A stretch of 64,000 nucleotides of DNA from Longimicrobiales bacterium (GTDB taxonomy: Bacteria > Gemmatimonadota > Gemmatimonadetes > Longimicrobiales > Gaopeijiaceae). A program made the translations under genes and the position numbers. The DNA lies in NCBI GenBank assembly GCA_965116905.1, contig OZ220732.1, positions 3,456,001-3,520,000 on the forward strand, read 5' to 3'. Shown piece by piece: positions 38,684-46,729 of the stretch (the first letter of the stretch is position 1; each line of letters starts with the position of its first letter). The notes beneath the pieces were generated by a model. That model was not told the origin of the DNA. It ran no database searches and saw only the letters and a program-made list of their open reading frames with translations.

Positions 38684-38859
38684 CGTCGACTTCCTCCCTC
38701 GTGATGGACTCCACGATCTGCGCGGTCGAAACTTCGCGCCGGGACCATGTCTCCGTCAAACGGGCGGTCCGCCGCGCGGTGCTGCGCTCGGGTGGCAAGC
38801 CACTGGACGCCATCGTCAGCGGCTCGGACCATGATCGCGATCCGGTTCCGGACGGCGCA

Positions 38860-39096
38860 TCAGATACGGAGGCCGCGCGGTCTCGCGCCGGTGGATGTCC
38901 CGTAGTACTCGGCCAAGCGTGTCACTTGCCCGTCGAGCCGCTCGATTTGCCGCTGCAAGACTTCGTTCTCCCCGCTCAGCCGCTCGACGCGCCGCCGCAA
39001 GGCTTCGACCTGCCCGGATTGCCGCCGCTGTTCCCTCTCGTACTGCGCGGACAACCTCTCCAAGGCGGTCGTCAACTGCCGTTCCAAATCGTTCAC
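38860..39096 (-). CDS. MbeD/MobD-like coiled-coil protein, overprinted in the relaxase
   Basis: 'MNDLERQLTTALERL...EN..L..QIERL..QV.RL' resembles ColE1 MbeD, in the same nested position. Confidence 0.7.
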   Translation of the reverse strand: MNDLERQLTTALERLSAQYEREQRRQSGQVEALRRRVERLSGENEVLQRQIERLDGQVTRLAEYYGTSTGARPRGLRI

Positions 39097-39108
39097 GCAG
39101 CTTCCTCC

Positions 39109-39609
39109 TCACTCTCTCAAGAGCTTCAAGTAGGGCCGCCCGTCCATCGTGAACGCCGGACGGACCGGAGTGCGGGCGGGGAGCGCCACGTACCGCTCCC
39201 CGCTGATCTCCCGCAACTCGACGCCCCAGGTCGTCTCCTGCATCCCGGCCAGGGTCTCGCGCGCCCGCTCGATCCGCACGTTCACCTCCGTCAAGGTCTC
39301 GAACCGGGAGTCGATGATCCTCGACAGCCAATGCATCGTCGCCCAGCTGCCGCCGCAGATACCGAGAAAAAGGCTCAGGCCGACGATCAGGGGCCGGAGC
39401 CAGACCCTCATCAGCGACTCGCGCATCCGCGCGGTCGCCTTCTCCGTATCGGCCTCGATGGAACGCAGCGCGCCGCTTGCGACGGCGCTCAAGTTCTCTC
39501 CAAGCCGCGCGAGCTCTCTCGCGGCCGCGTCCTCGATCCGTTGCCGGTCGGCCTCCAGCCTGCTCCTCAGCCGGGAGGTCAAGTCGCCCGGGCTCGAAGT
39601 CTCGCTCAT
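39109..39609 (-). CDS. MbeB/MobB-like protein, overprinted in the relaxase
   Basis: GAAGGGAGA RBS; coiled coil, one TM segment, 'TWGVEL...GERYVALP' motif. Confidence 0.7.
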   Translation of the reverse strand: MSETSSPGDLTSRLRSRLEADRQRIEDAAARELARLGENLSAVASGALRSIEADTEKATARMRESLMRVWLRPLIVGLSLFLGICGGSWATMHWLSRIIDSRFETLTEVNVRIERARETLAGMQETTWGVELREISGERYVALPARTPVRPAFTMDGRPYLKLLRE

Positions 39610-39960
39610 ACAGTTCTCCCTTCAGCCGCCACCGCTTTCCGCTGTCCGGATCGCGGGCGGTGATGTAGTCGTGGCCCTGGCGCGGTACCTCCAACCCCAC
39701 GTCCTCAAGGGCGGAGACCACGTCGGCGCGGCCCTTTACCGCGCCGTGCTCGACGCGCTGCACGAGGTAGTCGCGGATCAGTGTGCGCGGGTCCGCCTCG
39801 TGTTCGAGCCCGGCCCGCAGCTTCGACGCCTCGATGTAGGCCACGTGGCCCGGCCGCTGCGCCCTCGCGCGCGCCGGGTCGTCCGGGCGGCTCCAGCCGT
39901 GCTCGTGGTTGAAGGCGTCGCGTAGCGGAGCGAAGGTCTTCTCCCAGCCGGGGGGCGCGA

Positions 39961-39969
39961 TGTTGAGGC
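39961..39969. repeat. att core, left copy TGTTGAGGC
   Basis: Identical to 46348..46356, exactly at both relaxase breakpoints. Confidence 0.85.
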
Positions 39970-40274
39970 GGAACGCCGAAGGTCTGAATCCCGGCAGGAA
40001 GTCGTCTAAGTCTAATCTGGACTGCACGATCTGCGTTTCTTGCCGTTGTACTGGACCCTGCTGGACCGTGCCGCGAAAGAGGGAAAACCGGACCTGAATG
40101 GCGGGAGTCCGCCACGAAGCAGAAACGCCTGCAAGGGCAGAGCTTTCACCGCCGAACCCCAAGCAACTGCCAGTCATGGCGGCGGAACTGTCTCGGAATG
40201 ACAGATCGCGGCGGAACCTGTTAGGTTTGAGCCGATCCAGCCTGAATCATCCCCCACACCGAGGAGGGAGGCCA

Positions 40275-44171: not shown

Positions 44172-44819
44172 ATGGGCAGCTCGCATGATGCCGTCATGCA
44201 GTACGTGGAACAGGAAATGAAGAAGGACCCCGGCGTGAAGAATGCCACCCTGTTCGCCGGTGCCCGCGAGATCGACGAGTCGATCGGGGAGCTTAGGCCG
44301 CAACAGTTCCACGCCAGGTATCGGCTGCCGGTGACGCGGCGGATGGCGGAACAGCGACGGCCCGCACGGCAAGCGAAGGCGGCCCCGACACCCGAACCCG
44401 CGCCTGCGGCATCAGGTGATGGGGTTGCCGTCATGGAGTACGTGGAGCGGACGCTTGAGGCGAACCCCGGAATCACGAACGCGGACCTGTTCGCGGGTGC
44501 CCGCGAGATCGACCCCTCGGTAGCGCAACTCTCGGCTCGGCAGTTCCACGCGAAGTACCCTCTCCAAGTGAAGGCGCGGCTCGCAAAGGCCGCCGCGCCC
44601 GAGCCCAAGACGCCGCCGGAACCGGAGGAAGCAATGGCTGAGGAGCCCACCGCCCCGGACGTATCGTCGGCGGGGGAGGGCGACCCGCTCGCGGTCCGCC
44701 GCCTGCTGCTCGATCTGGCGAAGGAACTCGCGAACGCGGAGAGCAAGGCGGAAGTGATCGAGGTCATGGCCCGGCTGGACGACTACGTGGCCGAGATCAT
44801 GGAGGCGGCACGAGGTTGA
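44172..44819 (+). CDS. Hypothetical protein with two tandem copies of a ~55-aa domain
   Basis: 'AVM.YVE......PG..NA.LFAGAREID.S...L...QFHA.Y.L.V' occurs twice, with P/A-rich linkers and a helical C-terminus. Confidence 0.75.
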   Translation: MGSSHDAVMQYVEQEMKKDPGVKNATLFAGAREIDESIGELRPQQFHARYRLPVTRRMAEQRRPARQAKAAPTPEPAPAASGDGVAVMEYVERTLEANPGITNADLFAGAREIDPSVAQLSARQFHAKYPLQVKARLAKAAAPEPKTPPEPEEAMAEEPTAPDVSSAGEGDPLAVRRLLLDLAKELANAESKAEVIEVMARLDDYVAEIMEAARG

Positions 44820-44898
44820 GTCGTCCGCGCGCCTCGGTGGCCCGTGGCGCGCACGGCACGATGAAGATAGGCCAAGAGCACCGCGCGGACGCAGTGCG

Positions 44899-44957
44899 GG
44901 GGTCCGGGGGTATCCCCCGGCCAGAGTTTTTCGTGAAGCGAAAACACATCTGGCTCC
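44899..44957 (+). other. oriT-like site C (ColE1/MOBP5 geometry)
   Basis: CCGGGGG-TAT-CCCCCGG hairpin, then GCCAG-[25 nt with TTTTCG..CGAAAA IR]-CTGGCTCC. Confidence 0.6.
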
Positions 44958-45089
44958 TCCACAAACCGGAGAAACAAACGCCCCCGTGGCGCGCGCGACC
45001 GGGGCACCAACTCTGGACGACGCGCCCGCCCTGCGCGAGCTTCCAAACGCGCAGATCGTGCAGTCCATCGAATCGAAAGGAATCGAACG

Positions 45090-46253
45090 ATGGCACGCAC
45101 GAGAAGAAGCCGCCGGAGCTACGGCGCCGGCGAGTGGGGCCGGAACCGGGTCAGGGTGTTTCCCGACCCGAAGACCGGCTTGTTCCAAGTGGAGTGGCGC
45201 GAGAATGGTCGAAGGCTCACCCGGTCGCTCGGACACCGCGATTGGGCGAGGGCGAAGCGGCAAGCGGACGAGTTTGCCGCCGGGTTTGCAAACCCGGACC
45301 TGAACGGCAAGGCGGAAGCCGAGCCGGAGCCGCTCACCCTGGGCACGCTCTTTGAAATCTACGGTGAGGAGGTGACGCCCTCGAAGGACGAGCGCAACCA
45401 ACGGCACGACTGGATCGCGATGGCGATGTTCCGCGACTTCCTCGGGCCGGACCGAAGGCCCGAGACCCTGTCCCGGCGAGATTGGGACAGGTTCATCCGG
45501 GAGCGGCGCGCGGGCAGAATCGGTCCCAGTGGAAAACCCGTGGGCAACCGCACCCTCGAATGGGACCTGACCTTCCTGATGGCGGTGCTGAACTGGGCGG
45601 CACGGTCGAGGGACGAGCAGGGCCGCCTGCTGCTGGACCGGAACCCGCTGAAAGGTCTCCGGAAGCCGGTCGAGAAGAATCCCACCCGGGTTGTTCTCAC
45701 CGAAGAGGAGTATCAGGCGCTGCTCGGGGTCTCGCGGCGGTTGGACTGGCGGTTCCATGTTGCCCTCGTGCTCGCGCACGAAACCGGGCACAGGATCGGA
45801 GCCATCCGCAATCTCATGTGGTCGGACATCGACCTTGAGGGCGCGATGGTGAGGTGGCGGGCGAAGCACGAGAAGACGGGCTACGAGCACACCACGCCGC
45901 TGACGGACGACGCAGTGGCCGCCTTGGAGGAGGCACGGCGGATGAATCCCGAAGGCGGCGACGGTCCGGTGCTGCCCGCGCCGACAAACCCCGCGGAGTG
46001 CCTCGGTGGCTGGCGGGCGCTGAAATGGTGGTACAGGGCCGCGACCCTCGCGGGGCTCGAACCGAAGCGCGGGCGGGCTTGGCACTCGCTCAGGCGCAAG
46101 TTTGCTTCGGACCTGATGGACCAGCCGCTCAAAGTGCTCTGCGAACTCGGCGGGTGGAAGAACCCCCAGACGGTCCTGACCTGCTACCAGCAGGCGAACA
46201 CGGGACGACTCAGGACGGCTCTGGAAAGCCGCCGGAGGGTTCGCTCCCGATAG
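45090..46253 (+). CDS. Tyrosine integrase of the level-3 element, close homologue of the ICE integrase
   Basis: Shares long identical stretches with 25183..26358 (AGEWGRNRVRVFPDPKTGLFQVEWRE; HETGHRIGAIR; WHSLRRKFASDLMDQPLKVLCELGGWK). Confidence 0.92.
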   Translation: MARTRRSRRSYGAGEWGRNRVRVFPDPKTGLFQVEWRENGRRLTRSLGHRDWARAKRQADEFAAGFANPDLNGKAEAEPEPLTLGTLFEIYGEEVTPSKDERNQRHDWIAMAMFRDFLGPDRRPETLSRRDWDRFIRERRAGRIGPSGKPVGNRTLEWDLTFLMAVLNWAARSRDEQGRLLLDRNPLKGLRKPVEKNPTRVVLTEEEYQALLGVSRRLDWRFHVALVLAHETGHRIGAIRNLMWSDIDLEGAMVRWRAKHEKTGYEHTTPLTDDAVAALEEARRMNPEGGDGPVLPAPTNPAECLGGWRALKWWYRAATLAGLEPKRGRAWHSLRRKFASDLMDQPLKVLCELGGWKNPQTVLTCYQQANTGRLRTALESRRRVRSR

Positions 46254-46347
46254 AATCCCAACCAGCGGGAATCAAACGGCGGGAGTCGAACTACCTAAAC
46301 TCCCAAGTTACACGCTCACAACAACATGCGTCTCCAATGGCATTTGC

Positions 46348-46729
46348 TGTTGAGGCTGCGGCCCGTCTGGAGGTCGCACTGCGCGGCGAGGATGTGGGCG
46401 TGGACGCCTCCGCCGCGCTCGCGGTGCAGGACCGCCGTCCAGGCATAGCGGTCCGGGTCCAGCCCCGCCCAGGCCGTCTTCTCGAACTCGTCGAGGACGG
46501 CTTCGATCTGTTCCTCGGTCGGCCGGTCCTCGGGCGCCCACGCGATCACGGCCGACGTGTACCTGCGCTCGAAGTCGAGCGAGTCGGCCACGGCGGCCAC
46601 CATGTCCGGGTTGCCGCGCACGACTTCGACGCCCTCGCGCTCGTGTCCCGCCGCGTCGCGCTCTCCGACGAGATACTCGACCGCCGCGCGGGCCGAGCCC
46701 TTCCCGTGGGAGAGGAACTTAACGAGCAT
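46348..46729 (-). pseudogene. 5' part of the split MbeA/MobA-type (MOBP) relaxase
   Basis: 'MLVKFLSHGKG...VEYLVGE...VVRGNP...RYTSAVI' resembles ColE1 MbeA motifs I/II; HUH 'VLH.E....VHAH'; breaks at TGRSLN. Confidence 0.88.

Follow-up and report, generated by a model that had tools for sequence, protein, structure and literature searches.

A stretch of 64,000 nucleotides from a Longimicrobiales bacterium (contig OZ220732.1), called the window here, contains a relaxase gene, mobA, that is interrupted by a 6,387-bp element (64% GC) with its own tyrosine integrase. The two halves of mobA lie on either side of the element, which is bounded by two copies of a 9-bp repeat, TGTTGAGGC, and the genes mobC, mobB and mobD belong to the same operon (Table 1). 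In this study, we compared the junctions of this element with those of related elements in other genomes and contigs (labelled by G and L numbers, G000 being the source genome). These comparisons indicate that a lambda-like integrase lineage probably prefers one codon position of an MbeA-like relaxase gene as its attachment site (attB).

A relaxase gene split by an integrase element

The 9-bp repeat occurs exactly twice in the window and cannot be extended on either side. Taken alone, it is weak evidence of insertion, as shuffled versions of the window contained a mean of 0.37 copies and 2 copies were reached in 4 of 100 shuffles; a chance repeat is ruled out, however, by the recurrence of the junction in other genomes. 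Read across one copy of the repeat, the reverse-strand frame from 46729 to 38816 has 1,527 nt, i.e., 508 codons and a terminal stop, with no internal stop. The break lies approximately 12-14 codons past an H-x-H motif (HRERGGGVHAH, residues 102-112). The rejoined relaxase aligns from end to end with three intact paralogues of the source genome, at 64-70%. In addition, an intact copy from another genome (L158) has DNA identities of 91.9% to the 5' half and 92.2% to the 3' half. Among 21 intact copies it is the best joint match and near-best for each half, and the rank correlation between the halves is 0.72. Synonymous codon changes outnumber replacement changes in this comparison (24:5 over 119 codons and 11:6 over 100 codons in the two halves). 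The two halves derive from one relaxase lineage.

The initial annotation, made from the same DNA, is confirmed in the positions of both repeats, in the sum of 382 and 1145 nt that gives the stop-free frame of 508 residues, and in placing the break just past an HUH motif; the possibility it raised that the halves come from different lineages is answered by L158. It had also called the insertion recent or reversible. The intact frame and the excess of synonymous changes relative to L158 fit this view, but an excised or empty form of the strain was not seen.

The mobC-mobA operon, with mobB- and mobD-like frames within mobA, has the layout of ColE1 MbeA (PMC9282650), and its gene order and overlap are like those of the ColE1-type mobC-mobA/B/D operons of the MOBP5 class (PMC9282650, PMC8683028). 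Both halves match the MbeA model NF047848 colinearly, at model positions 1-121 and 178-461, but they do so with 66.6 and 41.5 bits against a cut-off of 500. The relaxase motif is H-x7-H-x-H, with three histidines, and differs from the HEN motif III of MOBP5/HEN relaxases (PMC8683028); in addition, the operon resides in an integrated element and not in a ColE1 replicon. Because the motif has three histidines rather than HEN, and because the scores are far under the cut-off, we name the enzyme MbeA-like only, and its sequence indicates that it is not a member of the HEN family. Plasmid records matching the 5' half numbered 3,418, the best of them at 54-64% (Methylomarinovum, Halomonas and Aeromonas).

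The integrase scores above the cut-off of Pfam PF00589, and its residues R235, K262, H332, R335, W356 and Y366, which are invariant across 34 aligned homologues, constitute the catalytic R-K-H-R-H/W-Y set. In a predicted structural model (mean predicted local distance difference test score, pLDDT, 74.7; predicted template modeling score, pTM, 0.47), N-terminal strands at residues 19-46 are followed by a helix at 52-67. With this model, the top Foldseek match was full-length lambda integrase (E 1e-8, 18% identity), weakly ahead of the Tn1549 integrase; a sequence search of the PDB returned only XerD. According to the predicted model, the enzyme is lambda-like, with N-terminal arm-binding, core-binding and catalytic domains. 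Short GCGGGA-type repeats, conserved inside both element ends, are candidate arm-type sites. The R-K-H-R-W-Y set, the predicted N-terminal three-strand sheet and helix, and a probable 7-bp overlap are shared with lambda-type heterobivalent integrases. The family of the window integrase differs from these in that no Xis was identified, many divergent copies occur per genome, targets are clade-specific, and one overlap mismatch is possible.

Recurrence of the relaxase target

We searched for further junctions with right-end patterns that held no relaxase sequence beyond the first two core bases or, in a narrower pattern, no core base at all. Among 314 genomes of the taxonomic family, the right-end pattern had 26 matches in 20 genomes. 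Of these, 5 were at the relaxase codon that is split in the window and 2 at a second site (mobB/mobA); a single position in a sibling integrase gene accounted for 9, a P4-like integrase gene for 1, and the remaining 9 were at other places. One more relaxase-codon case, G019, came from a DNA search. The narrower pattern was found in 2 metagenome contigs, of which one has the relaxase-codon junction and the other a second-site junction seen before, and in 10 genome contigs. Eight of these 10 represented already known places; the 2 new ones were L151, with the junction at the relaxase codon, and L147, with a second-site junction. A related right-end pattern had no matches in viral contigs. L151 comes from a Dehalococcoidia bin, which would mean either cross-phylum transfer or misbinning.

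Overall, 14 distinct right junctions of the integrase clade were seen. Eight are at the relaxase codon (G000, G025, G022, G019, G094, G095, L097 and L151), 3 are at the second site, which belongs to the same mob operon, and 3 are outside this operon. The left-junction pattern matched once in each of 7 of the 314 genomes, 6 times in the relaxase gene and once at the off-target gene of G084. The element is complete on one contig in the source genome, in G094 (10.7 kb) and in G095 (13.7 kb), and both relaxase halves also flank it in the latter two. In all 8 relaxase-codon cases, the truncated relaxase meets a stop within 11 codons of the junction. The outward frame at attL, which leads into the 3' half, varies in length: in three cases it stays open for 93, 103 and 73 codons, and in three others for only 3, 7 and 14; a fusion gene at attL was therefore rejected, and the open frame is probably incidental.

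The same junction was found in seven further genomes or contigs, which supports the proposal of the initial annotation that a relaxase gene serves as attB for this tyrosine integrase; since 3 of the 14 junctions are outside the mob operon, the specificity is strong and not absolute. The annotation further stated that a close homologue of the integrase in the window abuts a tRNA. A paralogue (26355->25204) does adjoin a tRNA-Val gene (25067-25141), but it has its own target and, at 68% identity, is the least similar among the five further full-length copies that the genome contains. We rejected off-target insertion by a tRNA-targeting integrase on this ground and because tRNA-linked integrases lie elsewhere on the integrase tree.

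Core sequence and site specificity

The seven bases that precede GC in the core vary with the Leu codon of the host (TGTTGAG or TGTTCAG) and, in sister clades, with the target, whereas GC is constant, and in G084 only seven bases are duplicated. Because of these three features, the exchanged overlap is probably 7 bp, with GC as part of the binding site; 7 bp is the usual overlap length (PMC10111431). In the source genome, the 7-bp overlap matches at 609 places, the 9-bp core (with either Leu codon) at 50, and a site of 12-14 bp at 1-3. Because a rule based on the core alone would, with 50 matches, rarely land in the relaxase gene, the integrase likely reads more than the core. Under the core-only rule, a rough binomial tail is 2e-8 to 3e-5 for 8 of 11 and 4e-4 to 0.012 for 4 of 7 independent events.

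Targets were also compared across an integrase tree of 76 C-terminal parts (6 of 82 rows, short or with stops, were dropped, and 43 rows were labelled 'other'). Target labels cluster on this tree, requiring 10 changes compared with a mean of 32 after shuffling, although kin share labels. Among the recurring targets of the family are sibling integrase genes, at two positions, as well as mobD, ssb-like genes and tRNAs; the names of ssb and other target genes are our own assignments from the translations.

An alternative explanation is that the integrase recognizes a short motif and inserts widely, and that relaxase copies are over-represented since insertions in dispensable mobile DNA survive while others are purged. 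The abundance of overlap matches is consistent with this, as are the three junctions outside the operon, which share part or all of the core, and the many targets of the family, among which, in the source genome, are an IS110-like gene and tandem-repeat DNA. Survivorship alone, however, predicts no single position, whereas eight junctions fall at one codon instead of being spread over many dispensable cargo genes. Moreover, sister clades each keep their own recurring site, such as the sibling-integrase position that accounts for 9 of the 26 matches. We consider this explanation unlikely.

Independence of the insertions

Host relaxases and integrases were compared in seven relaxase-codon cases (all except L151), which give 21 non-independent pairs. 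Integrase identity and host relaxase identity were uncorrelated across these pairs (rho -0.03). For example, the integrase closest to that of the window (94.5%) is in G025, whose host is only 79% like the host in the window. In addition, two well-supported integrase subclades each occupy both relaxase types. Because host relaxase identity does not track integrase identity, these comparisons point to four or more separate insertion events, provided that the hosts were not shuffled by recombination between elements.

Such shuffling is part of a second alternative, in which one ancestral insertion spread by inheritance and homologous recombination between related elements, with no ongoing targeting. 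The elements are indeed mosaic (L020 matches the 5' half in the window at 92% and the 3' half at 78%), and the hosts in G022 and G025 are 95.6% alike. However, identity among interrupted hosts is 77-96%, and several of them are at least as close to intact copies as to other interrupted ones; the G095 host, for instance, shares 97.0% identity with an intact copy and 91.5% with its nearest interrupted counterpart. In G094 and G095, both ends carry the core variant that corresponds to the host codon, and the elements are unlike in size and cargo. A single ancestral insertion is thus very improbable.

A proposed model for targeting

Direct observation extends to the junctions, the open rejoined frame, the recurrence in unrelated host relaxases and the 7-bp cores that match at both ends of most copies. 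Beyond this, we propose that attP of the circular element would recombine with a site of approximately 12-14 bp around conserved Ser-Leu-Asn codons, with exchange across the 7-bp overlap. Integration would yield a truncated, probably inactive relaxase of 137 aa and would part mobB/mobD from mobC, and excision would restore the relaxase gene exactly. Such a site may be suitable in that it is kept by coding constraint and present in several copies per genome, and its loss is probably cheap for the cell.

Several observations weigh against preferred use of the relaxase codon or against subsequent excision. Three junctions are outside the operon, i.e., those in G084, in G070, where the integrase is off the contig, and in G319, where it is partial and contains a stop; G084 is off target although its genome has 6 intact sites. 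Occupancy is low, with only 6 occupied sites compared with 160 intact relaxase sites in 33 of 53 genomes; the target is thus plentiful and for the most part unused. In the source genome itself, an intact site with a perfect core (C1:65451) is unoccupied. The relaxase-codon label requires 3 changes on the integrase tree and does not form one clean clade. No excisionase was identified among the scanned open reading frames (ORFs) of the element, and neither an empty site nor a circle joint was found at 99% likeness in contigs of four runs, two of which contain this strain (contigs drop rare forms). Joints skipping exactly 6,387 bases did occur at 90% likeness in runs X1, X2 and X3, but none at 99% in runs X1, X2, X4 and X5. 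Because they are absent at 99%, they were rejected as excision products and most likely derive from related intact relaxases.

Finally, the two cores of G022 differ by one base; they are on separate contigs, whose relaxase halves both best match the host of G025. This may reflect mismatch-tolerant exchange, as in IntDOT, which tolerates overlap mismatches (PMC2817482), or a later mutation or an assembly effect. An IntDOT/Tn916-type integrase, with largely homology-independent exchange and incidentally matching cores, would accommodate this mismatch and the differing cores of the clades, but it is the least probable explanation, as the ends do not show the non-matching coupling sequences of that type (cores are identical at both ends in 6 of the 7 elements with this core type and match in G087, G007, G011 and G001) and the best structural match, though weakly ahead of the Tn1549 integrase, is lambda integrase.

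Candidate transfer origins and possible mobilization

Family scans of window ORFs covered approximately 25-57 kb. No match to a relaxase or mobC was found inside the element, whose main ORFs were also scanned with Pfam. With its own integrase and att ends, and neither a relaxase nor a type IV secretion system (T4SS), the element resembles a relaxase-less integrative and mobilizable element (IME) or mobilizable genomic island.

It contains, however, two hairpins that resemble those upstream of mobC genes. Similar hairpins are present in the left parts of the G025 and G022 elements and on the contig part right of the left junction of G084. A loose form of the motif has 9 matches in the genome, 4 of them of doubtful meaning. 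Based on their position and conservation, the hairpins in the element are candidate origins of transfer (oriTs), and we take them to be similar to the ColE1-type nic region. Mobilization of the element in trans is plausible. Either the restored relaxase or an intact paralogue may nick the excised circle at such a hairpin, and the circle may then leave the cell via the T4SS of the surrounding integrative and conjugative element (ICE); this is the least certain step of the model, and we would put it at somewhat under an even chance. The complete elements in G095 and G087 lack the oriT motif and the G094 element carries its own mob genes, which also counts against the model; hitch-hiking on the interrupted relaxase is therefore not a rule for the whole clade.

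A broader and more tentative idea is that the element is a helper-embedded conjugation satellite two levels down, i.e., a relaxase-less island in the relaxase gene of a mobilizable element that itself lies in the T4SS operon of an ICE. The helper could then nick only after excision, and the restored relaxase would act on the oriT copy of the island, so that the parasite would gate its own transfer. One integrase family would have radiated to at least five positions of the oriT-mobC-mobA/B/D module, possibly retargeting by mismatch-tolerant exchange.

Relation to known systems

Streptococcal IMEs insert in the ICE genes traG, maff2 and snf2 and in oriT (PMC5357655, PMC5704250). They resemble the window element in that they insert site-specifically into a conserved transfer function of a different mobile element and disrupt it, in having two sites within one target gene or operon, and in the proposed restoration of the helper upon excision. 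They differ in that they use serine integrases at gene-internal targets, disrupt ICE genes (those for the coupling protein and others) and carry their own relaxase (PMC5357655, PMC5704250), whereas the window element has a tyrosine integrase, hits the relaxase gene of a mobilizable host element and has no relaxase of its own.

Helper-embedded phage-inducible chromosomal islands (PICIs) are also similar, since one integrase clade repeatedly disrupts genes of another element without a replacement fragment, insertion sites group on the integrase tree, and a minority is off target (28 vs 491; PMC10111431). These PICIs, however, are phage satellites in late genes of prophages, with replication and packaging functions (PMC10111431). 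The target discussed here is a relaxase gene in a conjugative mobilization operon, and no PICI-type genes were present among the scanned ORFs of the element. Relaxase-less islands of the MGIVflInd1 type likewise have a tyrosine integrase and an oriT related to that of the helper (PMC5704250). Their mobilization by SXT ICEs was experimentally shown, and integration into the relaxase gene of the helper is not described in the portion of PMC5704250 considered. In the portions of the literature on such elements considered here, no relaxase gene used as attB was found, and the word 'relaxase' does not occur in PMC12884075; the TIGER target lists or the TIGER database could contain an example.

The relaxase gene, which encodes the central enzyme of conjugative mobilization, would thus be added to the integrase targets inside other mobile elements, and it is hit by a tyrosine integrase in contrast to the serine integrases of the streptococcal cases. 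The system could serve as a compact model for testing whether embedded elements restore their helper upon excision and then exploit it, and closely related integrases (70-90% identical) with different targets provide a natural series for changes in specificity. With regard to annotation, split relaxases in these genomes should not be taken as decayed pseudogenes.

Other members of the integrase family

In the source genome, 7 sequences match the integrase at E<=1e-40, and in a sample of the genus matches were present in 32 of 36 genomes, several with at least 31, compared with 1 of 24 genomes from two other families. The integrase family is greatly expanded in the host genus. Named homologues were mostly from Gemmatimonadota, including Candidatus Palauibacter. 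Protein clusters at 87% identity or more to the integrase numbered 13, and the 10 of them that were examined comprise about 100 member sequences. Elements of the family in the source genome have differing cores and targets. One sibling element (G000 C1:1814100-1820900), with an intact relaxase, lies at a 7-bp repeat inside a gene that, from its translation, we take to encode an IS110-family transposase. In a sister clade of genus g19 (L119, L110, L114, L111 and L113; 79-83% identical), five right junctions coincide at a single site, in a gene reading WKKLSR.

Left ends of the family abut oriT-like hairpins in at least four places. In L033, L081, L097, L098 and G000 C1:3540200 these hairpins are next to the presumed nic region, which recalls the streptococcal IME_oriT. 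The right end of L124 lies in mobC.

Features of the element and the surrounding region

Table 1. Features of the interrupted relaxase operon, the inserted element and its host element (window coordinates)
Feature	Position	Strand	Remarks
attL core, 9-bp repeat	39961..39969	+	Probable 7-bp overlap plus GC; same left junction type in G025, G022, G019, G094, G095
attR core, second repeat copy	46348..46356	+	
Host relaxase mobA, 5' half	46357..46729	-	Tyr near residue 19, His motif 102-112; runs 10 codons into element, then stop
Host relaxase mobA, 3' half	38816..39960	-	
mobB-like ORF overlapping mobA 3' half	39109..39609	-	Contains second target site of related elements; putative name, from mobC-mobA/B/D position
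mobD-like ORF	38860..39096	-	Pfam MbeD_MobD
mobC (NikA-like/MobC ribbon-helix-helix protein)	46719..47045	-	Start approximate
Host oriT-like hairpin upstream of mobC	47156..47196	-	Putative function, from position and conservation
oriT-like hairpin inside element	41661..41702	+	Resembles those upstream of other mobC genes
Second oriT-like hairpin inside element	43455..43495	-	87% like that of host over 54 nt; one change in conserved core
Tyrosine integrase, 387 aa	45090..46253	+	Oriented toward attR; predicted three-domain lambda-like fold
16-bp family motif	40019..40034	+	~50 bp inside left end
16-bp family motif, inverted copy	45051..45066	-	Directly upstream of integrase
Candidate arm-type repeat near left end	40097..40109	+	Putative role
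Tandem candidate arm-type repeats	46264..46288	+	Between integrase stop and attR; conserved across family; putative role
Cargo: small predicted lipoprotein	40275..40661	+	No family matches
Cargo: T5orf172/MUG113 domain protein	40735..41349	+	Partial match to PADLOC candidate PDC-S57
Cargo: PD-(D/E)XK nuclease (PDDEXK_4)	41868..43190	-	Partial match to PADLOC candidate PDC-S26
215-aa protein with internal duplication	44172..44819	+	No Pfam family
Host element	35485..53552		P4-like integrase 35658-36875, AlpA 53049-53297, mob operon, leucine-rich repeat cargo

DNA related to the gene for the 215-aa protein occurs upstream of other family integrases, a similarity at the DNA level only. Against the Atlas, this protein matched hypothetical clusters only, with recognition under the reliable range. 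A short stretch inside the element (~43840-44010, reverse strand) translates like the C-terminus of a P4-like integrase and may be a remnant.

The 18-kb element that contains the interrupted operon also encodes a P4-like integrase and AlpA; it is bounded by a 14-bp repeat (35471-35484 and 53539-53552) and splits a 301-codon gene of a T4SS operon; the frame of this gene is open across the repeat. We presume that the gene is TrbJ-like. This is a second case of a transfer gene used as a target. The T4SS operon is part of an ICE-like region. The integrase of this region ends at a distance of 62 bp from tRNA-Val, and further tRNA-Val fragments are found 84 and 99 kb away, outside the window. The nesting therefore has three levels, i.e., the 6.4-kb element, the 18-kb host element and the ICE-like region. 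These fragments (G000 C1:3565486 and 3580219) are followed by left ends of the family, which suggests tandem accretion at tRNA-Val.

Within the host element, a cargo gene at 47767-52812 encodes a protein of 1,681 aa with Ig-like and leucine-rich repeats and a weak match to peptidase M66. At 52920-52990 there is a left end of the family, whose partner right end was not found between 35.5 and 53 kb; it is probably what is left of a family element that has decayed and formerly contained the mob operon. At 38706-38722, the 16-bp motif precedes a PEGA-domain cargo gene (38231-38683) instead of an integrase, as if the integrase had been replaced at the start codon, and two more membrane-protein-like genes follow.

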